The notes under the pieces: model-generated
Seen by the model: the letters and a program-made list of their open reading frames with translations, nothing else
What the model was told of the DNA's origin: nothing
Databases searched by the model: none
From: a virus
Taxonomy: Duplodnaviria > Heunggongvirae > Uroviricota > Caudoviricetes
DNA length: 37,030 nucleotides
Reading direction: 5' to 3' (one strand)
Virus record (IMG/VR): IMGVR_UViG_2861069343_000007
Location: 1 to 37,030 of that record
In this document: one piece after another, positions 935 through 37,030 of the stretch
Position numbering within the stretch: the stretch's first letter is position 1
Layout: each line of letters starts with the position of its first letter
Made by a program: the position numbers and the translations under genes

Positions 935-2620
935 GTGAATATAAACGTCGCCGAATTGTTAAATGGGAATTACATTCTGTTATTATTTGTGGTCCTCGCG
1001 CTTGGGCTATGTCTCGGAAAGTTACGACTTGGTTCGATCCAACTGGGTAATTCCATTGGCGTTTTAGTCGTATCGCTGTTATTAGGCCAACAACATTTCA
1101 GCATTAACACCGATGCGCTTAATCTTGGCTTTATGCTGTTTATTTTCTGCGTCGGGGTCGAAGCCGGACCGAACTTTTTTTCCATTTTTTTTCGCGATGG
1201 GAAAAATTACCTAATGTTAGCACTGGTGATGGTTGGCAGTGCGCTGGTGATCGCCTTAGGGTTAGGTAAGCTGTTTGGCTGGGATATTGGCCTGACGGCC
1301 GGTATGTTAGCAGGCTCTATGACGTCGACACCGGTTCTGGTCGGTGCTGGCGATACACTGCGTCATTCCGGCATGGAAAGCAGGCAGCTCTCACTGGCAC
1401 TGGATAATCTGAGCCTCGGGTATGCCTTAACCTATTTAATCGGTCTGGTGAGTTTGATTGTTGGTGCGCGTTACTTGCCGAAATTGCAGCATCAGGACTT
1501 ACAGACCAGCGCCCAGCAAATCGCCCGCGAACGTGGCCTGGACACTGATGCCAACCGTAAGGTTTATTTACCGGTGATCCGCGCCTATCGCGTCGGCCCG
1601 GAACTGGTGGCCTGGACCGACGGCAAAAATCTGCGTGAACTGGGTATTTATCGACAAACCGGCTGCTACATTGAACGTATTCGACGTAACGGGATTCTGG
1701 CAAATCCAGACGGTGATGCCGTGCTACAAATGGGCGATGAAATAGCGTTGGTAGGCTATCCCGACGCCCATGCCCGACTCGATCCCAGCTTCCGTAACGG
1801 TAAAGAAGTTTTCGATCGTGACCTTCTCGACATGCGTATCGTCACTGAAGAAGTGGTCGTTAAAAACCATAACGCTGTAGGTAAACGTCTCGCACAACTG
1901 AAGTTGACCGATCACGGTTGCTTCCTTAACCGCGTCATTCGTAGCCAGATTGAGATGCCGATAGATGACAACGTCGTGCTTAACAAAGGTGACGTTTTAC
2001 AAGTCAGCGGCGATGCCCGCCGCGTAAAAACCATCGCCGATCGCATCGGCTTTATCTCGATTCACAGCCAGGTCACTGACCTGCTGGCATTCTGCGCCTT
2101 CTTTGTTATTGGGCTGATGATCGGGATGATCACCTTCCAGTTCAGCACATTCAGTTTCGGCATGGGGAACGCTGCCGGGTTGTTATTCGCCGGAATTATG
2201 CTGGGCTTTATGCGTGCTAACCACCCGACCTTCGGTTACATTCCGCAAGGTGCATTAAGCATGGTGAAAGAGTTCGGCTTGATGGTGTTTATGGCAGGCG
2301 TTGGTCTGAGCGCCGGTAGCGGTATTAATAACGGCCTGGGCGCGATTGGCGGTCAGATGTTGATTGCCGGATTAATTGTCAGTCTTGTGCCCGTGGTTAT
2401 CTGTTTCTTGTTCGGTGCTTATGTATTGCGAATGAACCGCGCACTGTTGTTCGGCGCAATGATGGGCGCACGCACCTGCGCGCCGGCAATGGAGATCATC
2501 AGTGATACAGCTCGCAGTAACATCCCTGCGCTGGGCTATGCGGGCACCTACGCAATCGCCAACGTCCTGCTGACGCTGGCAGGGACAATCATCGTCATGG
2601 TATGGCCAGGATTAGGATAA
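935..2620 (+). CDS. ybjL: Putative transporter YbjL (AAE family, duplicated membrane domains with central TrkA-C-like region)
   Basis: 561 aa; hydrophobic N- and C-terminal halves around a soluble middle; recognised as E. coli YbjL. Confidence 0.9.
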
Positions 2621-2732
2621 AACTGAAGTTGCCCTGAAAATGAAATTTTTTTGCACAACCGCAGAACTTTTCCGCAGGGCATCAGTCTTAATTAGTGCCA
2701 CTGCTTTTCTTTGATGTCCCCATTTTGTGGAG

Positions 2733-2776
2733 CCCATCAACCCCGCCATTTCGGTTCAAGGTTGATGGGTTTTTTG
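2733..2776 (+). terminator. Rho-independent terminator-like hairpin downstream of ybjL
   Basis: 10-bp stem cccatcaacc / ggttgatggg (2733..2742, 2760..2769) followed by tttttt (2770..2775). Confidence 0.5.
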
Positions 2777-2855
2777 TTGCCTGAAATTTAAGCTATTTAA
2801 AATCATGATGTTAGAAACACTGTTTTTTAACGATGGCGACAAAATGGCGGCAGCG

Positions 2856-22499: not shown

Positions 22500-22535
22500 T
22501 TTTAAAACGAAGACCATTAGGTCTTCGCTTTATTT
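22500..22535. terminator. Bidirectional terminator between convergent Q and retron RT
   Basis: 8-bp stem cgaagacc / ggtcttcg (loop atta), flanked by ttttaaaa upstream and ctttattt downstream; RT stop codon lies in the loop. Confidence 0.55.
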
Positions 22536-23479
22536 AAAGGGTTCTTTCCATATTTTTTTTCTAATTTGCTAATATAAGCTATTAATCTTCTATGGCTTTT
22601 TGAATCCACACTTAAAATAAATGACAACCATCCCCTAACGTGTTCTATCTCAGAAGATTTACCGCAAAATATATGATGTATCTTTGCTCTAATTTCTTTA
22701 TATTTTTCTCTACCTATCCCAACTTTCTCTTGTGAAATAACTAAACCTGTAACTTTCCTCTGACTACGAGGCCCACTAATACAAGTTTTTTTTGAGTTAA
22801 TAACCAATCCTTCACTTGGGATTATAGAAAATAAAAAATCACGTGCTTTAACAACCTTTTTCATAGACTGTGCAGATAAGGTGAGATCATCGGCATATCT
22901 CGTATATATCAAGCCCCGACTACCTGCATAGCCCTGAATACGATAATCAAGTTTTGAACATATTAGATTAGCTAATTTAGGTGATGATGGAGCACCTTGT
23001 GGTAGCAGATTTTTATAACAACATATTTTTGTCAAAACTGAAGATATTAGTCGATTATAACCAAGAGAATGGAACACTCCAAAAACTTTGTTAGCAGTTA
23101 AACTTGGGAAAAAATCCTCCAAATCAATATTCAGTATAAAGTTTGCCCCAATATGCGGGGTAGCATTATTCAAAATAGATTGGTGCTTTTCAAATCCAAT
23201 AGAAAAAGGAGATGACGACAGTTTATCTAAAATGTTACGTAGAACCCATCCTTGTAAGGCTTTAAGTTCTCGAGAAGGTTGGTAAATGGTTCTCATTCTC
23301 TTCTCTGGGCCTTTCTTTTCTACAGTGTAGATCCTATAGCGAAAATCAGCTGTATAGATTAACAACCGAAGTGTTTCAACAGATATGCGAGTCGCCTTAG
23401 ACATGTCATGCAAATTGTTCATGACAGGTAGGCCGAGATTTCTCAATCTAAAAGTGTTCAAATATTCAGCGGATTTCAT
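22517..23479 (-). CDS. ret: Retron reverse transcriptase (Retron-Eco1 / Ec86 RT)
   Basis: 320 aa; RT motifs including YADD (YTRYADDLTL); start codon 7 nt downstream of the a2 repeat of msr-msd. Confidence 0.93.
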   Translation of the reverse strand: MKSAEYLNTFRLRNLGLPVMNNLHDMSKATRISVETLRLLIYTADFRYRIYTVEKKGPEKRMRTIYQPSRELKALQGWVLRNILDKLSSSPFSIGFEKHQSILNNATPHIGANFILNIDLEDFFPSLTANKVFGVFHSLGYNRLISSVLTKICCYKNLLPQGAPSSPKLANLICSKLDYRIQGYAGSRGLIYTRYADDLTLSAQSMKKVVKARDFLFSIIPSEGLVINSKKTCISGPRSQRKVTGLVISQEKVGIGREKYKEIRAKIHHIFCGKSSEIEHVRGWLSFILSVDSKSHRRLIAYISKLEKKYGKNPLNKAKT

Positions 23480-23485
23480 GAAAGT

Positions 23486-23654
23486 TGCGCACCCTTACGT
23501 CAGAAAAAACGGGTTTCCTGGTTGGCTCGGAGAGCATCAGGCGATGCTCTCCGTTCCAACAAGGAAAACAGACAGTAACTCAGATTCAATGCAGGATGCC
23601 GAAACAACATCCAGAGGTTGACCTTAATGATAAACCTCTCGCTAAGGGTGCGCA
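23486..23654 (-). ncRNA. msr-msd: Retron msr-msd non-coding RNA (Ec86 msDNA template)
   Basis: Plus strand 23499..23585 reads gtcagaaaaaacgggtttcctggttggctcggagagcatcaggcgatgctctccgttccaacaaggaaaacagacagtaactcaga, recognised as Ec86 msd; flanking inverted repeats a1/a2 TGCGCACCCTTA at 23643..23654 and 23486..23497. Confidence 0.9.
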
Positions 23655-24565
23655 TACGGAATCTTATCATAGTTAAATGTTGATTTTCTACGGTTTTCAA
23701 AATTCATAATCTCAAGCCGCAATCGGTCAAGTGTCTTTCTATCAAAGACGCTCCTAACATAGCTAGCCCCCAAAGCAGTGACCTGATAACCATCAGTCAT
23801 TTGAAGTATTTTTCGTTCATTTATTAGACGAGAAACAACGGATCTAACAATAATTTTAGATAAAACATCATCTTGCTTTATCGCTTTAAAAGCTAGTTCA
23901 CACAGTGTGCGGTAGTTGACACTATCCAGTAAATAGATACAAGGCAATAGAAACCGCTCTGCGTATAATATATTTCCAATATCTTTTGATACTTTATTTT
24001 CTTTCCTAACCTGCTTAATAGATGCCATTAATTTTTTATATAATCGTAATTTTCTGGCAACATCAATAGATGAATCACACATTTCTTTTAGTTCATTTGA
24101 ACTACAACGCAAAACAGATTTTGAATTAAACTTACGCAACAGGCGAACAGGACCATAGTTAATAAAGCTACGTTTTGATTTAAATTTTGCATCTTGAATG
24201 CAAATCAACTTTCTCCTTAAGTTTTCATTATTAGAGAACGCACCAAGCTCTGTGAAAGACCCCGGACTTTCAGGAAATAAAATTATTACATCGACAGCTT
24301 CAGCCAGAATATTTTCTAAACTTAAAAGGCTATGCTGCCCTTGACCAGCCAAAAGATCATCAAATAGATCTTCTGGATAAAATATATCAACATCACTGAA
24401 CTTTGCTAAAAATTGTGATAATTGATGACGCCAAGATTGATGATTAGCAACGTCACCACCACATAGAAAAATGGTTATTTTAATATTAGCTCCTCGATAG
24501 AAGCCTTTCTTTGTGAGATGTCCTATAAGCTGTTGTTGCTGCTCATCGGTAAATTTTTTATTCAT
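23642..24565 (-). CDS. Retron-Eco1 accessory effector (nucleoside deoxyribosyltransferase-like domain protein)
   Basis: Immediately upstream of msr; start assigned to MNKKFTDEQ (ATG 24565..24563, GGAG 4 nt upstream) though in-frame ATGs exist upstream (24595, 24754); stop overlaps a1. Confidence 0.75.
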   Translation of the reverse strand: MNKKFTDEQQQQLIGHLTKKGFYRGANIKITIFLCGGDVANHQSWRHQLSQFLAKFSDVDIFYPEDLFDDLLAGQGQHSLLSLENILAEAVDVIILFPESPGSFTELGAFSNNENLRRKLICIQDAKFKSKRSFINYGPVRLLRKFNSKSVLRCSSNELKEMCDSSIDVARKLRLYKKLMASIKQVRKENKVSKDIGNILYAERFLLPCIYLLDSVNYRTLCELAFKAIKQDDVLSKIIVRSVVSRLINERKILQMTDGYQVTALGASYVRSVFDRKTLDRLRLEIMNFENRRKSTFNYDKIPYAHP

Positions 24566-24637
24566 AATCTCCCCGCTTTTTTCTACTTTATACATCAAGT
24601 TATGAATAGATCCAATCTCCATACCCCATGGCGCGCG

Positions 24638-24656
24638 CTCGTATCCCCGCCACGCC
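24638..24656. other. Candidate cos site (cohesive end)
   Basis: Minus strand reads GGCGTGGCGGGGATACGAG, resembling the P2 cohesive end GGCGAGGCGGGGAAAGCAC as recalled; inside a short GC-rich patch between two AT-rich islands. Confidence 0.4.
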
Positions 24657-24697
24657 TGCCCGCTTTGTGTAGTGGTTTTCATGCACCTGCATGACAT

Positions 24698-24722
24698 AAG
24701 TAAAAGCCCGCCAGAACTGGCG
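24698..24722 (-). terminator. Hairpin with U-tract on the minus strand in the cos-proximal region
   Basis: cccgccag..ctggcggg stem (24706..24722) followed on the minus strand by a T-run. Confidence 0.35.
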
Positions 24723-24874
24723 GGACTGAGCAAAAACGATCCTTTTGCGATCATTCATTTTCATGCGCTATAGTCATGCAACAAACGCATACGAACCATA
24801 TGGTTAGATTACTCATCAAGTCAGATGGATTTTCAGGCAGATTGCCACAGCAATTGTAAAGGAGCGAGATTGAA

Positions 24875-25876
24875 ATGGGTGGAGAGACTTCGGCTATACA
24901 ACGAGTCGCGGGTAAGATTTCTGATGATATTTTCTCAGTGTTCAAATGGGATCGTGCCGCTAGAGCGGACATGAATTGGGATTGTTGCCAAGAGGCTCAT
25001 TCCAAGAAAACACATCCAAGCGATGTTGTATTTTTCTACATAGATCCATATGAGGAGGAAATGGTCTATCTCAACACAGACCTCAAAAGCTATGCAGAAG
25101 GTACTATTGGGAAAAAAATAGTCGAGGGAGCTTTAACATCGCTTGCTTTAGCTACCGAATGTGCAAATGTCAGTGAAGAATGGCGATTGAAATATGTTCA
25201 TGATGATTCTTTAGGTTATAACGTAAGAGGGTTATTATTCTTATATAACCATGATAATTTATATGATAAAGACTTCTATGAGAATATTACAAAAAAATTA
25301 GATCACTCATCTATAAATTGCCCTCCAAACATCAAACTACATTTGCTTGACCCTTATAAAATATCAGATTTGATAAACATATCTTCTGACATAACTAAGT
25401 TAATTGGTTCAGGCAAACTTCCTCAACCTGATAAGTTCACATATTATTATCCAGATCTTTCCCTAACAAGAATAAAGCACCCTATTAATCAGACAACACC
25501 TGCAACAATTGAATTATTAACATCACCATACATTATAATAAAGCATGAGGCTTTCAGTTGGCTCAGGGATAAAAACCCTGAGGGATATGTTGTTTATTAC
25601 AATCAACCGGGGGATTCAGTAGACGAATTCGTTTACTTCTTTGATATGTTATCAACTTATCAGATATTAACCGAAGGTAAACCAATCGTATTACGCCATT
25701 GTCACATTCACCCAAATGAAAATGCCATTCATCATTTTGAAAGAGCGAAAAAGAAATACAGCACAGACTGGCTCTTAGGCGAGGATGAAAGACTTTTTCT
25801 TAAAATTGACTTCGACAAGACAGACAAAATTGTTGTTGAATATAATCTTGAACAAATCGGCATGGAGCAACGATAA
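24875..25876 (+). CDS. Hypothetical protein, first gene of three-gene cargo operon
   Basis: 333 aa; AGGAG upstream; AT-rich codon usage unlike the phage backbone; no family recognised by eye; possible PD-(D/E)xK-like pattern VVFFYID…NTDLK (speculative). Confidence 0.7.
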   Translation: MGGETSAIQRVAGKISDDIFSVFKWDRAARADMNWDCCQEAHSKKTHPSDVVFFYIDPYEEEMVYLNTDLKSYAEGTIGKKIVEGALTSLALATECANVSEEWRLKYVHDDSLGYNVRGLLFLYNHDNLYDKDFYENITKKLDHSSINCPPNIKLHLLDPYKISDLINISSDITKLIGSGKLPQPDKFTYYYPDLSLTRIKHPINQTTPATIELLTSPYIIIKHEAFSWLRDKNPEGYVVYYNQPGDSVDEFVYFFDMLSTYQILTEGKPIVLRHCHIHPNENAIHHFERAKKKYSTDWLLGEDERLFLKIDFDKTDKIVVEYNLEQIGMEQR

Positions 25877-26955
25877 TGGCTAAAAAACTATATTTCGCAA
25901 CTGATAAAAATATTTATGATGCATTACATCATAAAAGGATAACCGCTGCAAAGTTGCATGAATTATTGTTGAATCGAGGTGTGTTTTTATCACCAGAACT
26001 CGACAAGGAAATACTAATCGAGGAAATATCCAAACTTCCTCACGGATTTAATGAATTAGAACACATAAAAAAACTGGTCAAAACATATGACCCAAGGGAA
26101 AGCACTACTAGTGTGAGCTTCCAAACCTCAACAAATCAGGCCGAATTAAAAAGTGCTGCTGAAGCACTAAAAAAAACATGCTCCCCTAGTAAAGGTCAAA
26201 GCCTGAATATTGTAGCTAAAAAAGATGGCTCGCTTACAGTAGAATACAAATATGAAGAAATAGACCTGTCTAAAACTGCATTACGTCAGATCGACAAGCG
26301 GAATGTTATAATAGAACTTCGCCCTGGAGCTGACAAAGTTGAAGTACGTATGCCTCAAAACCCCGAGGCAAAAAAAGTTATTGAGAGCTTGCAAAACGAG
26401 CTATCTAAAATCAAGTCCGAACCTATCGAGCGCTTCGAAATATCATTACTAGCAATAACTGATCCTACATTGCGAAGTCAGTTTTTTCAGGAATTAATGA
26501 ATGGTCTACGCGGTTATGAGACTGATGACGTAACAAAAGTCGAATTAAATCGCAGTACTGATGCTAGTGAGGATGAAGACAAGGAAGAAACTATTGATAC
26601 CGGATTTGTTAAGAAAGCTGTCCTTAATGGTGAAGGGGTAAATAGTTCAGCTATATTTTCTCAACTACATGAGAAAGGTTATTATATCGGGCGTATTGCA
26701 TGGTCTTCAAAGCCGACAAGTGGAATTGGAGACAGAATCAACGTCGAAGCATTTTTCAAAGACTCAGAAAAATGCTGTGACTTTGCCTATCAAATTAAAG
26801 GTATAAACAATCAAAAAGAAGACGGTTTCAATGTAACCATTCGCGCGGCAACAGCACAAGAGAAAAAACATATTAGTGAATTAATTGAGTCCGCCGCTGA
26901 AAATGCCTATAATATAATAATAGGATCAGAGGTGAACGAAGATGAAAAAGGTTAA
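25876..26955 (+). CDS. Hypothetical protein, second gene of three-gene cargo operon
   Basis: 359 aa; start overlaps upstream stop (TAATG); charged and Lys/Glu-rich; no recognisable motif. Confidence 0.7.
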   Translation: MAKKLYFATDKNIYDALHHKRITAAKLHELLLNRGVFLSPELDKEILIEEISKLPHGFNELEHIKKLVKTYDPRESTTSVSFQTSTNQAELKSAAEALKKTCSPSKGQSLNIVAKKDGSLTVEYKYEEIDLSKTALRQIDKRNVIIELRPGADKVEVRMPQNPEAKKVIESLQNELSKIKSEPIERFEISLLAITDPTLRSQFFQELMNGLRGYETDDVTKVELNRSTDASEDEDKEETIDTGFVKKAVLNGEGVNSSAIFSQLHEKGYYIGRIAWSSKPTSGIGDRINVEAFFKDSEKCCDFAYQIKGINNQKEDGFNVTIRAATAQEKKHISELIESAAENAYNIIIGSEVNEDEKG

Positions 26956-27625
26956 ATGGCTTAAGTTAAACATACGGCTTGAGTTTGAAACAGCCGTTAG
27001 ACGTCTTTCTCTTGATTCTTTTACAGAGGATAAAGGGAAAGGGTTCATTTTTGATAAAATACGCCATGATTTTGCAAATGGTCGCTTTGTCGAGCGTATT
27101 GTTTATCATGATAAAATATTAAGCTTTGACGGAAGCGAAACTACCGTTGAAAGAATCGAATATCGCACCACAAATTTTAGCGTGGCTTTAGACTCTCTTC
27201 CTGTAATGCAGATTACTAACCCACCCAGAACTTTAAAGCCTTTTTCGCAGGCTTTGGTAAAAAATCTTGGCTTAGGTGTTAGTTTGGAAGAAATTGACAT
27301 AAACCCTATAGACTGGCTTAATGAAATATCTTCAAGTGTAAATATCAATTTAACACAACTTGATATTTCAAGGGTTAGAGTTTCTGATTACGCCACAGCT
27401 AAAATGCAAATAATTGGCAGCAATGATCTTAGGAAGTATTATAAAGAAGAATTAGAGGGTAAAAAAATAAGAATTGACAGGCTTGTTTGCTCTGTTAATT
27501 CATTAGAATATTCCGGTAAGCTCAAGATCACCAATAGCGGCCTTGCTTATATTGATGTTAGAAATGAGAATGAGTTTACGAAAATCGTTTTTGATACGTT
27601 AAAAAAAGTCACCCTTCAATCATAG
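26942..27625 (+). CDS. Hypothetical protein, third gene of three-gene cargo operon
   Basis: 227 aa; 14-nt overlap with upstream gene; no recognisable motif. Confidence 0.7.
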   Translation: MKKVKWLKLNIRLEFETAVRRLSLDSFTEDKGKGFIFDKIRHDFANGRFVERIVYHDKILSFDGSETTVERIEYRTTNFSVALDSLPVMQITNPPRTLKPFSQALVKNLGLGVSLEEIDINPIDWLNEISSSVNINLTQLDISRVRVSDYATAKMQIIGSNDLRKYYKEELEGKKIRIDRLVCSVNSLEYSGKLKITNSGLAYIDVRNENEFTKIVFDTLKKVTLQS

Positions 27626-27681: not shown

Positions 27682-27712
27682 GTAGGCGTCAGAATCAAGT
27701 TCTGACGCCTAC
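27682..27712 (+). terminator. Strong stem-loop between convergent cargo operon and dinI-like gene
   Basis: Perfect 13-bp stem gtaggcgtcagaa / ttctgacgcctac with 5-nt loop. Confidence 0.5.
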
Positions 27713-27720
27713 AATGTTTC

Positions 27721-27954
27721 TTAATGCAGCCAGCTATCGTCCTCCCACACCTTCTGCATAATTTTCATCACTTGTTTTCTTTCTTCGTCCAGTTGCAGTC
27801 CGGTCAGTTCCACACCGTTAGAGCTACCTTTGCGGATACGAATTACCGTTTTGGGATACAGGGGGCGCAGATTGCGGTAAAGCTCGGATTCAAGGGCGTC
27901 CAGGGTAGACTGGCTAATTTTCTGCTCTTTATCGATCATTATTTCAATGCGCAT
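27721..27954 (-). CDS. DinI-family protein (Tum C-terminal-domain-like)
   Basis: 77 aa from MRIEIMIDK; resembles DinI (MRIE…, conserved acidic C-terminus …WEDDSWLH); GAGGTGA Shine-Dalgarno. Confidence 0.75.
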   Translation of the reverse strand: MRIEIMIDKEQKISQSTLDALESELYRNLRPLYPKTVIRIRKGSSNGVELTGLQLDEERKQVMKIMQKVWEDDSWLH

Positions 27955-27964
27955 AAAAGTCACC

Positions 27965-28153
27965 TCAGCTGATGACATCCATTGAGCGGTTGTATTCGTG
28001 GCTTCTGATTTTTGCCATGAGTTCATCAGTCAATTCAGAAACCCACTGCAGAGCCAGCCCCTTCTCTTCATCACTACACTCACTAGCCGCTACAAGCTTA
28101 AGAAAAAAATCAATGCGCTGGAGCTTCAAAGACTCCAAAAAATAGTCCTGCAT
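27965..28153 (-). CDS. Small hypothetical protein co-transcribed with the dinI-like gene (possible Tum N-terminal part)
   Basis: 62 aa from MQDYFLESL; strong AGGAGG Shine-Dalgarno; sits 44 bp downstream of a LexA box. Confidence 0.55.
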   Translation of the reverse strand: MQDYFLESLKLQRIDFFLKLVAASECSDEEKGLALQWVSELTDELMAKIRSHEYNRSMDVIS

Positions 28154-28196
28154 TTTTCCTCCTATGATACCACAAGCAATACTGTACACATAACCA

Positions 28197-28212
28197 CTGT
28201 TTATATTTACAG
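28197..28212. promoter_or_regulatory. LexA (SOS) box
   Basis: CTGTTTATATTTACAG fits CTGT-N8-ACAG; upstream of the tum/dinI-like operon. Confidence 0.7.
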
Positions 28213-28306
28213 TATATAATAATCTTACTGATGTAAAACGTTTTTTTACGTTCATCAGCCTGATATGCCTGGTATTATTAAGAGCACGAATTGTTAACCC
28301 GCGTAA

Positions 28307-30721
28307 TTAATACAGATCCCGCCACTTATCATCTTCCTGCAAACGCTGGTTCCGATAGAAGATACGCAGGCCTGCTCCTGACGGAATACTGCCGCCGCGA
28401 AGGAGTAAATCGACCTCTTTCTCGCTGCCATCAAATCCTCTGGACTTCAGTTCATAGACGAGCTGCTGTCGTTGATGGTCTGTAATTCGCTGTTTGTAGT
28501 CTCTACGCCGTTTCGGTTTCACCAGGCGTAACCTTGCAGCCAGTTCCCGGCGTTCTTTTTTGTTCATACTGTGCAGGTAATCGTGCAACTCCTTGTCATC
28601 CATACGGGTGATATCCGTTCTGGTATCCCCATCAGCTGATTTGTCTTTCCCTTGTTGGTACAAATTTTCAGCAAGGGGACAGTTATTGCCACGAGTCCAA
28701 GGGGCGCAAGCGCCCTGGTCGGCTACCGCCTCCTGAACGTCAACGGCCTTACGAACCATTTTCCACTTCACTGCATGAGTGCAGATCTTGCCCTCTGAAA
28801 TGGGTGACCAGATGCCATAAATACGAATACCGTGATCGCCATAGGCGGTCGGCTCTTCGTTAATTTCATAAGCGGTTCTGATAAGGTGATATTTGCGGGG
28901 AACCAGTACGCCGCCCTGCTTCATGATGTAGGTGGCAAAACAACCAGCATCAGCAGCAGCCAGGATGGCATCAAGACGCGGGTCATCCAGTACCGGCGCA
29001 CCTGCTTTTTTGTCACCCGGTTGCCTTGCCGCCTGACCAGCCAGCAAGCGAAGTTCACGGTAAGCCTGACGCCCCGGAATGCCAAAGAAGCGGAATTGCT
29101 GAACACGATGCAGAGACGCCCAGGCATTAACGTATTCAGCGTTATCACGCAGGGATTTACCCGTTTCCTTGCTGATCTCGCCAGCCAGACCACGCCCGTC
29201 AATGTTCTTACTGATGTATTTCGCGATGTAGCTTGTTGGCGTACCTTTGCGCGGGTTTATCAGCTCAGACTTAAAGCGTGGTCCCGTGTTATTACCCAGC
29301 TCCTCGCGGTCTTCACGAATGGCAAACTTACGCAACAAAGCAGTAATGGTGCGGCGATCTTTTTTGCGCATAAAACACAACAGGTGCCAGTGAACTGTAC
29401 CGTCATGATGCGGCTCAGCCACCCGCACGCCATACCAGCGCAATCCGGCTTTGTGCATCGCCTTACGAAATGCAGCAAACATGCCGACCAGATAATCACT
29501 GCTTTGTCTTACCGTCGTATTTGTCCAGGTCGGGTTGGGCCTGCCGTTATTTAGCGTGGAATGGAAACGTGACGGACAGGTGATGGTGTAGAAAACGGCG
29601 CAGTCACCGCGCATTTCCGCGATAAGCTCCAGACCTTTAACACAGGCCATCATCTCATTGCGGCGATGCGCAGGGTTGCTGCTGCTGGCGTTTACCACAT
29701 CCTCCATGTCCAGCGTGTCGCCGTCTTCGTTCACCAGTTCATGAGAACGGAAAAACTCCAGCGACTTACGGCGCTGCTCACGTTTATGCATCACGGCTTC
29801 ATAGCTGACATAGGGAGATGCTTTTTTGCTGACCAGGCAAACAGCACGCAACTGCTCTTCCCGCCATTCGCAACGCATCTTCCATAATTTCCGGTACCAC
29901 CAGTCGGCGCACAACATACGCGCCAGCGAACCCGGAATGAGTTCATAGGGCACGGGTTTACGGCGGTTTCTTTTCCGGCGGAGTTGCTCAAACGCAGGCG
30001 GTATGACATCCAGTCGCAGGGTTTCCGCAGCCACCTTTTCCCATGTCTTGCGGATTTCTTCTGGCTTAACATCATCGGTGGCGTACAAATCACCACAAGC
30101 GGCATCAAGACACATGCTCATATGCGCAGCGACAAGAGTAGACAGGCGTTTCACCTGATCCTGACTCATTTCAGGCAAGTTCAGCAGGCCGTCCAGCCCT
30201 TCATGGCTTGCCATAAAGCGAAAAGAAGTGGATAGCTGACTCTCGCGTACATGCTCCAGTCGTTCCAGACATGGCTTAATCGTCTCACGCAAATAGCGGG
30301 AATAAGCCTTTGGCCTGCCCAGGCTGCTGAAGTATTCAATACGTTGCATCAGCGGCTTGCTGATATGGGAAGGCTGGGCGTTAACGTCCGCCAGTATGAC
30401 CATGTCCGGATTAAAACGCTGCTGCTCATGCGCCAGCTTTGCCCGGCTAATGAGCTTATCCTGCTCCATTTCGCGTTGGACAGGATCACGGGATTCATTA
30501 AAGAAATAACGCTCCCAGACCTGATCACTCAGTACCTCGAGGCGCAGTTGTTCCTGCTCGTTATCGGCAGCGTACAGAGTGATCAGGTTTGAAAGCGCAG
30601 AAACCGGCGCAACTTCCGCCGGGTCCAGATAAGGGTTAATAGCCTTTTTCGGGCTGTTCCATGAGAATGCTGCGGCGGCCTCGTTAAAGCCGCTGCAGTT
30701 GTTCATATCAGCATGGCTCAT
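28307..30721 (-). CDS. A: Replication initiation protein gpA (rolling-circle nickase)
   Basis: 804 aa; P2/186 A-like. Confidence 0.9.
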
Positions 30722-33785: not shown

Positions 33786-34355
33786 GTGGATTTCAATAGC
33801 GGCGGTAAGAAAACCATAGAACGTTTGGTTGAAGCATACGGGTTCGGTACCCGTCAGGCTCTCTGTGATCATTTAGGTGTTTCTAAGAGCACCATGGCAA
33901 CGCGTTATATGCGTGATATTTTTCCGGCAGATTGGGTAATCCAGTGCGCCCTTGAAACGGGTACCTCGCTTAATTGGCTAACAACAGGGCATGGTTCAAA
34001 GCAAGCATCAGCAAATACAAATACTATAGAAGTAGTAAAATATTTATTGTCTGATGGAGCATTGCAGGAAGACGGTTTTTATATTTTTGATAAGGGATTT
34101 CTACCCTCTACGTTTAAAAAACCTTTTGTCATCACAGATAACAATTCTGAATTTATTTGTGATAAAGAATTTGATGATATACGTGATGGTAAATGGGTAA
34201 TAAGTATTGATGGCGAAATAACAATCCGCGACATCACTCGTTTACCCGGTGGAAGAATTTTCGTTGAAGGTGGAAACAGAGCCTTCGAGTGCAAGATAGA
34301 AGATGTTGAAATAATTGGAAAAATTATAAGCTTAACAGTTAAGTATGTTAGATAA
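33786..34355 (+). CDS. cI: CI immunity repressor (186 type)
   Basis: Resembles 186 CI (…EAYGF…CALETG…NWLTTGHG…); start placed at GTG 33786 with GGAGG 6 nt upstream (ORF-track ATG 33699 would add 29 aa). Confidence 0.8.
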   Translation: MDFNSGGKKTIERLVEAYGFGTRQALCDHLGVSKSTMATRYMRDIFPADWVIQCALETGTSLNWLTTGHGSKQASANTNTIEVVKYLLSDGALQEDGFYIFDKGFLPSTFKKPFVITDNNSEFICDKEFDDIRDGKWVISIDGEITIRDITRLPGGRIFVEGGNRAFECKIEDVEIIGKIISLTVKYVR

Positions 34356-34566: not shown

Positions 34567-35898
34567 ATGAGCACAGATATAACTTTCGATATACGTGATG
34601 AATATAAAAGAAAAGCCATTGCAGAAAAAATAATAAGTTTGCTAGAGTCTAATATTCCTGTTTCACCTATGGTCATAGATGGGGACTGGGGGACTGGAAA
34701 AACAGAGTTTTCAAAAAAGTTAGCATCCTTAATTGAAATAAACTCGACCAATCATAAAGTAATTTATATAGATGCTTTTACTGAAGATCACAACGATGCT
34801 CCCATACTTACAATAATGGCCGCAATTGCAGCTCTATATAATAGCGATGAAAAAAAGGAATTAATATCTAAGGCATTGCCAGCCCTCAGATTCGGACTTA
34901 AGACTGTACTCAAAGCTGGTGCTGGTTGGGTATTAAAACAAAATGCGGATGAAATTAATAAGGAATTTGAAGAGGTTATCAAAGACGCTGCAAATTCAGC
35001 TATCGATGGAACCATCGAGGCTCTGTTAGAAGATCATATCGAGGCACAAAAGAACGTTCTTGCTCTAAAAGAAGTACTAACCAAATTAGCTGGAGAAAGT
35101 AAACTAACAATAATTATAGATGAGTTAGACAGATGTAAGCCTAGTTTTGCCATTTCTATTATTGAAAATATAAAACATGTTTTTGATATAAAAAACATTA
35201 ACTTTTTATTAATTGCAAACACAACTCAACTAAAAGCATCCATAAATCATATCTATGGCTCTTCTGTAGACTCCAACCGTTATCTTGACAAATTTATAAA
35301 ATTTACATACAGCCTTCCTGTTACCTTTAAGGAAGATAATTATAATGATACTTTAACTTCCAAAAATCATTGGATGATGCTATGTGAGCAATCTGAAAGG
35401 CTGACCGCTGCAGTAGAAGCCAGCGAAGATATTTTCTTACAGTTCATTGAAAGTAGAAAATTATCATTACGTGAGGTTGAAACACTTGCTAGATATGTTG
35501 AAATATACCAACTACTATCAGGCGACAAAATTAGCAACAAATATATTTATGGATATTGTTATTACAGGACTCTAGCGATAATAATCTACACTTTTAACCG
35601 AGAGTTAGCTCTCAACTTTCTTGAAGATAAAGTTGATGCTCAATCAATCATGAAATTGTTTGGTTTATCTAAATTTTCATATCAAACAAGTGAATATAAT
35701 GTAGATAATTATGAATATGCTATATTTGGAATAGTTTACAAATACTTATCTGAAAACTCATCTCTTTTACCTGCTGAGGAAAATATAAAAAGACAATGGG
35801 CAGAAATGAGTGAATACCATTTTTTAAAAGGTGGTGGCGGTATTGGTGAACCAACAAATATTGTGAAAGATGCTTTAAAAGTTTTTTTACTTCAGTGA
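34567..35898 (+). CDS. KAP-family P-loop NTPase
   Basis: 443 aa; Walker A GDWGTGKTEF and Walker B IIIDELDRCKP in KAP NTPase arrangement; AT-rich; between cI and int. Confidence 0.8.
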   Translation: MSTDITFDIRDEYKRKAIAEKIISLLESNIPVSPMVIDGDWGTGKTEFSKKLASLIEINSTNHKVIYIDAFTEDHNDAPILTIMAAIAALYNSDEKKELISKALPALRFGLKTVLKAGAGWVLKQNADEINKEFEEVIKDAANSAIDGTIEALLEDHIEAQKNVLALKEVLTKLAGESKLTIIIDELDRCKPSFAISIIENIKHVFDIKNINFLLIANTTQLKASINHIYGSSVDSNRYLDKFIKFTYSLPVTFKEDNYNDTLTSKNHWMMLCEQSERLTAAVEASEDIFLQFIESRKLSLREVETLARYVEIYQLLSGDKISNKYIYGYCYYRTLAIIIYTFNRELALNFLEDKVDAQSIMKLFGLSKFSYQTSEYNVDNYEYAIFGIVYKYLSENSSLLPAEENIKRQWAEMSEYHFLKGGGGIGEPTNIVKDALKVFLLQ

Positions 35899-35977
35899 TA
35901 TGTATGGCTATACAAATTCATACATTGACACTGGTTATACATACAGTAAAAATGCTCTCCACTGGAGGGCATTTTTT

Positions 35978-37030
35978 ATGGCAGTACGAAAACTCACCAC
36001 AGGAAAATGGCTTTGCGAATGTTACCCCGCCGGACGTAGTGGACGTCGTGTGCGTAAACAATTCGCCACCAAAGGCGAAGCTCTGGCTTTTGAGCGTCAC
36101 ACGATGGAAGAAACCGAAGCAAAGCCCTGGCTGGGTGAATCAGTGGATCGTCGAACACTGAAAGACGTGGTTGAACTATGGTTCAAACTACATGGTAAAT
36201 CTCTGACTGCTGGGCAGCATGTCTATGACAAATTGCTGCTGATGGCTGACGCTCTGGGCAATCCCCTTGCAACCGATCTCACATCTAAAATGTTTGCCCA
36301 TTATCGAGATAAACGACTGACAGGTGAGATCTACTTCAGCGAGAAATGGAAGAAAGGAGCCAGCCCGGTCACCATTAACCTGGAGCAAAGCTATCTAAGT
36401 AGTGTTTTTAGCGAACTATCCCGTCTGGGCGAATGGTCGTATCCGAACCCACTGGAGAACATGCGAAAATTCACCATCGCAGAAAAAGAGATGGCATGGC
36501 TTACCCATGAGCAGATTGTTGAATTACTGGCTGATTGCAAACGTCAGGACCCAATTCTGGCACTGGTAGTTAAGATATGCTTAAGCACAGGCGCACGCTG
36601 GCGAGAAGCCGTAAATCTTACTCGTTCACAGGTGACCAAATACCGAATTACCTTTGTCAGAACGAAGGGGAAGAAAAACAGAAGCATCCCTATCAGTAAA
36701 GAGCTTTACGAAGAGATCATGGCGCTTGATGGGTTCAATTTCTTCACAGACTGCTATTTTCAATTTTTATCCGTGATGGAAAAAACGTCTATCGTGCTCC
36801 CTCGCGGTCAACTGACACACGTTCTGCGCCATACGTTTGCGGCGCACTTCATGATGTCGGGTGGAAACATCCTGGCCTTACAAAAAATTCTCGGACACCA
36901 CGATATAAAAATGACTATGCGTTACGCACATCTGGCACCGGATCATCTGGAAACGGCGCTCCGTTTCAATCCTCTGGCAACATTGCCAAGTGGCGACAAA
37001 GTGGCGGCAGCGGTTGGCATTACCCCGTAA
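35978..37030 (+). CDS. int: Tyrosine integrase (P2/186 family)
   Basis: Start at MAVRKLTTGKWLCECYP (GGAGGG upstream); C-terminal catalytic region …HVLRHTFA…MTMRYAHLAPDHL…; stop at window end. Confidence 0.9.
   Translation: MAVRKLTTGKWLCECYPAGRSGRRVRKQFATKGEALAFERHTMEETEAKPWLGESVDRRTLKDVVELWFKLHGKSLTAGQHVYDKLLLMADALGNPLATDLTSKMFAHYRDKRLTGEIYFSEKWKKGASPVTINLEQSYLSSVFSELSRLGEWSYPNPLENMRKFTIAEKEMAWLTHEQIVELLADCKRQDPILALVVKICLSTGARWREAVNLTRSQVTKYRITFVRTKGKKNRSIPISKELYEEIMALDGFNFFTDCYFQFLSVMEKTSIVLPRGQLTHVLRHTFAAHFMMSGGNILALQKILGHHDIKMTMRYAHLAPDHLETALRFNPLATLPSGDKVAAAVGITP

Follow-up and report, generated by a model that had tools for sequence, protein, structure and literature searches.

A split tum operon behind a predicted double LexA operator in a P2/186-family prophage of the Fels-2/DuoHS type

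[quoted passage not shown] In phage 186, Tum is an anti-CI factor expressed from the LexA-regulated promoter p95 (PMC7708051). Binding to CI and the block of its operator binding were described for 186 Tum only, by Shearwin et al. 1998 as summarised in PMC3121763 and PMC7708051. The protein is one fused polypeptide of 146 aa, and the GenBank record of 186 gives the function 'inhibits CI DNA binding' to full-length Tum only, while the N-terminally truncated, DinI-only products are labelled 'modulates SOS induction'. The tum genes of Fels-2 (Salmonella Typhimurium LT2) and PSP3 are split by a stop codon, for which Lemire et al. cite Bunny et al. 2002 and a personal communication, and the upstream gene of the split PSP3 tum is described as the antirepressor (PMC3121763). 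In the PSP3 record (NP_958094, NP_958095), tumA is annotated as 'similar to 5' end 186 tum; UV induction of prophage' and tumB as 'similar to dinI and 3' end of 186 tum'. [quoted passage not shown] At colicin promoters, two LexA dimers bind a double operator, which results in tighter repression and later induction (PMC2994835).

The window, that is, the whole stretch of 37,030 nt analysed here, was a prophage of the P2/186 family and carried an immunity region of the 186 type. Fil, DksA-like, Dam and gene A were annotated in the 186 order in near-identical E. coli records, and a CII (CP76) homologue was found in the window. The same records annotated a gpA-like replication endonuclease of 804 aa at 28307..30721 (minus strand), and a two-gene operon was located directly downstream of it, in the position that tum occupies in 186, PSP3, Fels-2 and DuoHS. 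RybB, a host sRNA, was the sole Rfam match in the window at gathering thresholds; a retron RNA was not detected, and no tRNA gene was found either. Both proteins of the operon were 100% identical to their DuoHS counterparts (ECHS_RS04495 and ECHS_RS04500), the promoter, the -35 hexamer and both LexA boxes were the same except for a few spacer bases, and the chromosomal site next to ybjL and rybB appeared to be shared. The two prophages differed in CI (86% identical), in the cargo 3' of tumB and in a KAP NTPase insertion present only in the window. We are confident that the two genes form the SOS operon of a Fels-2/DuoHS-type prophage, in which the tum gene of 186 is split into tumA, encoding the antirepressor of CI, and tumB, encoding an accessory protein.

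Because the identical gene has been tested genetically and the split is annotated in PSP3, the split tumA/tumB SOS operon is already known. The initial annotation had implied that two small genes in place of one were a novelty; this did not hold, since the tumA/tumB pair of PSP3 is annotated, Fels-2 and PSP3 are both treated in PMC3121763, and the split proved to be the common form in E. coli. When 5,426 complete E. coli genomes were searched, the split type of the window had a match in 1,124 genomes (1,073 covering at least 80% of the query) and the PSP3-type split in 81 (37 at that coverage). The fused 186 type was matched in 42 genomes, with only 5 covering at least 80% of the query. A split tum is thus the rule in E. 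coli, and the fused form of 186 is the exception.

The first gene, tumA (tum), encodes 62 aa and occupies 27965..28153 on the minus strand, with its ATG at 28153 and a TGA stop codon at 27967..27965. Its Shine-Dalgarno sequence AGGAGG (28158..28163, minus strand) ends 4 nt before the ATG and was kept as AGGAGG(G) in relatives. TumA, also catalogued as WP_001154431.1 for its DuoHS form, was 96.8% identical to STM2728 of Fels-2. It matched no Pfam family and no PDB sequence. The family was widespread in Enterobacterales, with 484 clusters at 90% identity and 67 at 50%, so the lack of conservation of the 62-aa ORF in related prophages, named beforehand as a possible refutation, was not borne out. 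Among 24 species-level relatives, tumA differences fell on the three codon positions in the ratio 188:79:525, and 445 of the differing codons were synonymous vs 198 non-synonymous; the 62-aa ORF is under protein-level selection. AlphaFold2, run with the family alignment, predicted a helical hairpin with helices at residues 2-23 and 28-61 (pLDDT 87). In most genome annotations, tumA appeared as a 'hypothetical protein', as it does in the Fels-2 record, or as a 96-aa ORF extended through its own promoter. Recognition of tumA in annotations would improve predictions of prophage inducibility.

The second gene, tumB (27721..27954, minus strand), encodes a 77-aa protein of the DinI family (Pfam DinI, PF06183) that matched positions 1-63 of the 63 in the profile (E=6.6e-23, 81.3 bits against a cut-off of 24.2). 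It aligned over its whole length with the DinI protein of E. coli (PDB 1GHH; residues 1-75, E=2.7e-6), and the likeness to DinI (1GHH, 7YWA) included the C-terminal W-E-D-x-x-W region; unlike DinI, TumB is phage-borne and predicted to be co-transcribed with an antirepressor. TumB was 100% identical to STM2726.1 of Fels-2 and 78% identical to PSP3 TumB. A ribosome-binding site, GAGGTG (27961..27966, minus strand), was read from the sequence where it overlaps the tumA stop codon. The gap between the genes was 10 nt, from which tumA and tumB would form one bicistronic unit.

The relation of the two ORFs to 186 Tum was examined separately for each. Pairwise BLASTP found no similarity of TumA to 186 Tum or to PSP3 TumA, so the link between TumA and 186 Tum rests on a profile, built from 31 diverse family members drawn from the representatives of the 50% clusters. 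This profile HMM matched residues 6-48 of 186 Tum (E=2e-10, 35.8 bits), and the best decoy among 630 six-frame ORFs reached E=0.4. The shared pattern, ..ERIdLiARLvA...C...DkElAL.WiAEL, was visible by eye. The same profile was not significant against PSP3 TumA (E=1.3). TumB aligned with residues 71-145 of 186 Tum at 41% identity (E=3e-24). By the profile match and the TumB alignment, the first ORF is the counterpart of the N-terminal half of 186 Tum and the second that of the C-terminal half. The initial annotation had described a 62-aa ORF with a strong AGGAGG about 45 bp from an SOS box, a 77-aa DinI-family gene behind it and an equivalence of the pair to LexA-controlled 186 Tum, to be checked by alignment; all of this was sustained by the features above, the homologies to Tum and a 186-type CI in the window. 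The 186 record also lists an internal GTG start behind AAGGAGG for a DinI-only product of 77 aa, and this start is consistent with an origin of 186 Tum by fusion of a tumA-tumB pair.

Beyond DuoHS, the known operons resembled that of the window to different degrees. Fels-2 shared an identical box 1, and its second LexA box was also present, but it differed in host and in downstream cargo. In PSP3, a LexA box, a 60-aa gene and a 77-aa DinI-like gene likewise followed gene A, but its TumA was only about 20% identical to that of the window, its single LexA box lay 20 nt from the start codon, and its cI was annotated as longer (861 nt). Phage 186 shared the LexA-repressed p95 after gene A, with an annotated LexA site that supplies the -10 hexamer TACTGT, and a CI of the same family; it differed in its fused Tum, in its single LexA box and in the additional gene orf97 of its operon.

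The presumed target of TumA is the 189-aa immunity repressor of the 186 type encoded by cI at 33786..34355 (plus strand), which matched Phage_CI_repr and Phage_CI_C. In the Pfam search of this CI, no Peptidase_S24 match was found, and induction would therefore need an antirepressor route. The repressor was 33% identical to 186 CI and 86% identical to DuoHS CI; at the latter figure, the action of TumA on the window's own CI can only be extrapolated from DuoHS. By analogy with 186 Tum, TumA may bind CI directly.

The DinI-like TumB could instead be the effector of induction, for example via RecA, with the 62-aa ORF serving as an accessory or a leader peptide. TumB is the only part of the operon with a recognisable domain, it is better conserved than TumA between the window phage and PSP3 (78% vs about 20%), and the 10-nt gap couples the genes so tightly that a deletion of tumA could alter the expression of tumB. 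The in-frame deletion of ECHS_RS04495, however, keeps the ribosome-binding site of tumB, and yet induction was lost (PMC12055606). The distribution of tumB also speaks against such a role. In a survey that used a five-sequence alignment and reached relatives at least 71% identical, tumB was full in 16 of 32 species-level loci, truncated in 2 and absent from 14, and these 14 kept the LexA box and tumA. ESSI-2 and YenM06.16-2 likewise had a LexA box and a tumA-like gene without tumB. Since the LexA box and tumA persist without it, tumB is an optional part of the module and tumA its constant one. In addition, the 186 record assigns CI inhibition to full-length Tum and not to the DinI-only products, and deletions of the Gifsy dinI homologues had no significant effect on induction (PMC3121763). 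We regard TumB as a very improbable effector.

The preferred reading, with TumA as the antirepressor, was also weighed against the name 'levan regulatory (domain) protein', carried by close homologues of the window's TumA in UniRef and by one Klebsiella phage record, according to which the 62-aa protein would regulate host genes. No Pfam family supports this name. In every locus examined, tumA stood behind a LexA box and either after gene A or, where gene A was left unchecked, in a prophage-type cI/int context. The protein is homologous to the N-terminal domain of Tum, and deletion of the identical gene blocks induction (PMC12055606). The name looks like a propagated annotation, and a host-regulator function appears even less probable than the TumB alternative.

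Upstream of tumA, a promoter equivalent to 186 p95 was assigned by analogy and by conservation. Its -35 hexamer TTTACA (28232..28237, minus strand) is separated by 17 nt from TACTGT (28209..28214, minus strand), which is the probable -10 hexamer by analogy with the annotated -10 of p95; the annotated p95 has the same geometry, with TTCACA, 18 nt and TACTGT. An alternative -10, TATACT with a 15-nt spacer, lies at 28211..28216 (minus strand). A generic sigma-70 scan of the window did not call the tum promoter because only 8 of 12 positions match.

The TACTGT hexamer is also the first half-site of LexA box 1, TACTGTAAATATAAACAGTG (28195..28214, minus strand), so the LexA operator overlaps the operon promoter. 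Box 1 has 3 mismatches to the consensus 20-mer TACTGTATATATATACAGTA and scored about 23 bits with a matrix compiled from known LexA sites of E. coli, inside the range of those sites. Its 16-mer core, CTGTTTATATTTACAG (28197..28212), is the sole CTGT-N8-ACAG within the 37-kb window, and 43 nt separate it from the tumA ATG. Box 1 was identical in DuoHS and Fels-2, and a LexA box was also found upstream of tum(A) in 186, PSP3, YenM06.16-2 and ESSI-2. With a threshold of 15 bits, all but one of the 32 species-level loci (31) had a LexA box in front of their tumA homologue; the exception was a 1.2-kb contig (L011) that begins inside box 1. Since 37 of 100 shuffles contained at least one CTGT-N8-ACAG, the bare 16-mer is weak evidence, but the least probable of the alternatives, a chance AT-rich palindrome in front of an operon outside SOS control, hardly fits a 20-mer match equalled in 0 of 100 shuffles, a box position kept in every phage locus examined as well as in 31 of 32 species-level loci while the flanks diverge, and a prophage with an identical operator that was not induced in a lexA(Ind-) host (PMC12055606).

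Box 1 is followed by a second LexA-like match, box 2, CAGTGGTTATGTGTACAGTA (28180..28199, minus strand), which overlaps it at an offset of 15 nt. The near-consensus SOS box of the initial annotation thus had correct coordinates, held up as the full 20-mer against both the shuffles and a LexA scoring matrix, and was incomplete in that the overlapping box at 28199..28180 had been missed; the SOS dependence that a reporter fusion was to settle was answered by the published experiment on the identical gene (PMC12055606). The distance from the box to the ATG is unusually long because box 2 lies between them. Over box 2 and its 3' flank, 23 of 23 positions agreed with the second of the two SOS boxes in the promoters of colicin R and pesticin. 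The 35-nt double-box unit, TACTGTAAATATAAACAGTGGTTATGTGTACAGTA, has the architecture of a colicin promoter, with two LexA boxes offset by 15 nt (PMC2994835). Judged by its sequence, the tum operator is double and of the colicin type, with two overlapping LexA boxes, and LexA would be expected to occupy both. Two differences from the colicin and pesticin promoters were seen: there, both boxes appear to lie 3' of a separate -10, whereas here box 1 supplies the -10, and the product there is a toxin, whereas an antirepressor is regulated here. A 47-nt double-operator query matched 911 plasmid records, mostly of small mobilizable plasmids. When the literal double-box sequences were searched for in papers, no match was obtained.

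A second box of at least 15 bits was present at +15 in 20 of the 32 species-level loci; at the same threshold, it was absent from 186, PSP3 and most Pantoea/Erwinia loci (L030-L036). In 26 distinct promoter sequences, information was 1.8 bits per column in the -35 hexamer, 0.84 in the spacer, 1.67 in box 1, 1.58 in the rest of box 2 and 0.51 over the 25 nt that follow. Phylogenetic footprints cover the -35 hexamer, box 1 and box 2.

Taken together with the described systems, the locus suggests the following course of induction. In the lysogen, LexA on the two overlapping operators would cover the -10 and the start region, and the operon would be silent. After DNA damage, active RecA would promote self-cleavage of LexA, and the promoter would then fire to give a bicistronic mRNA. 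TumA would bind the 186-type CI, which appears to have no self-cleavage domain, so that the lytic promoter would no longer be held and lytic growth would follow. TumB, made from the same message, would probably act on RecA filaments and tune the SOS signal as an accessory protein. To our knowledge, binding to RecA filaments and modulation of the co-protease are known for E. coli DinI only; a modulation of RecA by TumB is suggested by analogy with that protein.

To compare TumA with its presumed target, the relatives of the Fels-2-like clade were examined. TumA was 82-94% identical among relatives whose CI proteins were only 40-45% identical; by domain, the same CI comparisons gave 56-75% for the N-terminal and 24-42% for the C-terminal part. 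TumA distances tracked those of gpA (Spearman 0.73) and not those of CI (Spearman -0.02). Co-variation of TumA and CI, as in a model of cognate specificity, was rejected within this clade, and its absence is unexpected for a strictly cognate binder. A generalist TumA would probably recognise the better conserved N-terminal domain of CI.

A second predicted promoter with a LexA box was observed before int, with TTGACA at 35925..35930 and the box CACTGGTTATACATACAGTA at 35929..35948 (about 23 bits). It continues with AAAAAT and GGAGGG to the int ATG at 35978. A LexA-like box lay about 30 nt upstream of int in 6 of 6 loci with the integrase type of the window, and no box of at least 15 bits was found upstream of int in loci with an integrase type about 53% identical.

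It is possible, though we put it forward only tentatively, that the Fels-2/DuoHS lineage wires SOS induction unlike 186, by means of the double tum operator, the LexA-boxed int promoter and a generalist TumA. If so, the double LexA operator on tum would make derepression threshold-like and late, the LexA-boxed int promoter would let the SOS response itself supply the excision enzyme, and a generalist TumA would allow cross-induction of heteroimmune P2-family prophages. None of the three was found in the literature searched, which did not include Bunny et al. 2002. The operon itself holds nothing biologically new; the double operator, the int box and the decoupling of TumA from CI are modest, testable additions to the 186 paradigm. 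The module would decide when a prophage type present in about one-fifth of complete E. coli genomes exits the chromosome and kills its host, and by timing this exit it would also govern how the defence cargo spreads, which in the window comprises a retron, a PADLOC system of three genes and a KAP NTPase.

Between tumB and the convergent Hp3 gene, a 14-bp G+C-rich hairpin (27682..27712, no strand assigned) was found with a folding energy of -27.5 kcal/mol (z=-5.3 vs shuffles). It is a probable terminator and was scored as terminator-like on the plus strand by the scan. On the tumB strand it has no T-run, so that the tum transcript can only be supposed to end there. The sequence is homologous to DuoHS and Fels-2 only as far as the stop codon of tumB, and the hairpin therefore belongs to the variable cargo. 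At this point lies the border of the gpA-gpQ defence hotspot, which has been described for P2-like phages (PMC9122126). The cargo of the hotspot in the window consisted of PADLOC Hp1/Hp2/Hp3 and a type II-A retron reverse transcriptase with an NDT partner, and the KAP NTPase gene was inserted elsewhere, between cI and int.

The tum operon was preceded by a predicted double LexA box (28180..28214, minus strand), with two overlapping boxes offset by 15 nt. From its sequence, this operator is predicted to be a double operator of the colicin type. Box 2 and its flank matched the promoters of colicin R and pesticin at 23 of 23 positions, and 20 of 32 species-level relatives carried a second box of at least 15 bits, the threshold used with the LexA matrix, at +15. 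No second box of this strength was detected at +15 in the related phages 186 and PSP3.

Besides that of tum, a second SOS-type promoter is predicted in the window, directly 5' of int (35925..35980, plus strand). It comprises TTGACA, the LexA box CACTGGTTATACATACAGTA, AAAAAT and GGAGGG, followed by the int start ATG at 35978, and the predicted box was equal in strength to the tum box. A LexA-like box was found at the same pre-int position in all six loci with the integrase type of the window (E. coli HS, L009, L015, L037, L040 and the window itself); none of at least 15 bits preceded int in the loci with the approximately 53% identical int type. No description of this promoter was found in the papers searched, and its nearest known analogue is the LexA control of the integron gene intI.

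Mechanical ORF calling yielded a 96-aa version (27965..28255, minus strand) of the 62-aa antirepressor gene tumA (27965..28153, minus strand) and a 101-aa version (27721..28026, minus strand) of the 77-aa DinI-family gene tumB (27721..27954, minus strand). The 96-aa TumA was rejected as an over-extension because it would start 5' of the promoter and read across both LexA boxes. TumA appears in many database entries in forms of 84-101 aa, and in some it is labeled 'levan regulatory protein', a name that looks like propagated annotation.

TumA was compared with its presumed target, the CI repressor (33786..34355, plus strand), across related loci (L009-L040). Prophages in which TumA retained 82-94% identity shared only 40-45% identity in CI. 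Across these loci, the divergence of TumA followed that of gpA, the replication endonuclease (Spearman 0.73), and did not follow that of CI (Spearman -0.02). TumA was identical in DuoHS, the related prophage of E. coli HS, and the window, while CI was just 86% identical. Because TumA is kept while CI diverges, the sequence data suggest that either TumA may be a generalist antirepressor or its target surface on CI may be conserved. tumB is optional in the tum operon: among the 32 species-level loci, 16 had a full-length copy, 2 had a truncated one and 14 had none, and phages ESSI-2 and YenM06.16-2 (L005 and L006) kept the LexA box and tumA in its absence.

Within 27700..27725, nucleotide homology of DuoHS and Fels-2 to the window stopped exactly at the tumB stop codon. 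On the gpA side, this boundary marks where the variable defence hotspot between gpA and gpQ, described in P2-like phages (PMC9122126), begins. PADLOC matched three genes end to end, Hp1, Hp2 and Hp3 (24875..27625, plus strand; E=1e-239 to 2e-157), all in the same direction and convergent with tumB; no Pfam domain was found in their products. Together they correspond to 'Rst_3HP', a system of three hypothetical proteins known from P2 hotspots. The minus strand also carried a retron pair of type II-A (22517..24754): a reverse transcriptase (22517..23479; PADLOC RT_II-A, E=8e-128; Pfam RVT_1) was paired with an effector resembling NDT (23642..24754; PADLOC NDT_II-A, E=5.5e-94), and Rfam at gathering thresholds detected no msr/msd RNA. 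The interval from the cI operon to int held an inserted gene for a KAP-family P-loop NTPase (34567..35898, plus strand; PADLOC PDC-S20, E=7e-171); DuoHS lacks such a gene at this position.

In the host flank (935..2778, plus strand), the RybB sRNA (2700..2778; 105 bits) adjoined a 561-aa ORF, a candidate ybjL by its position. The prophage end therefore appears to lie at the same chromosomal site as that of DuoHS in E. coli HS.
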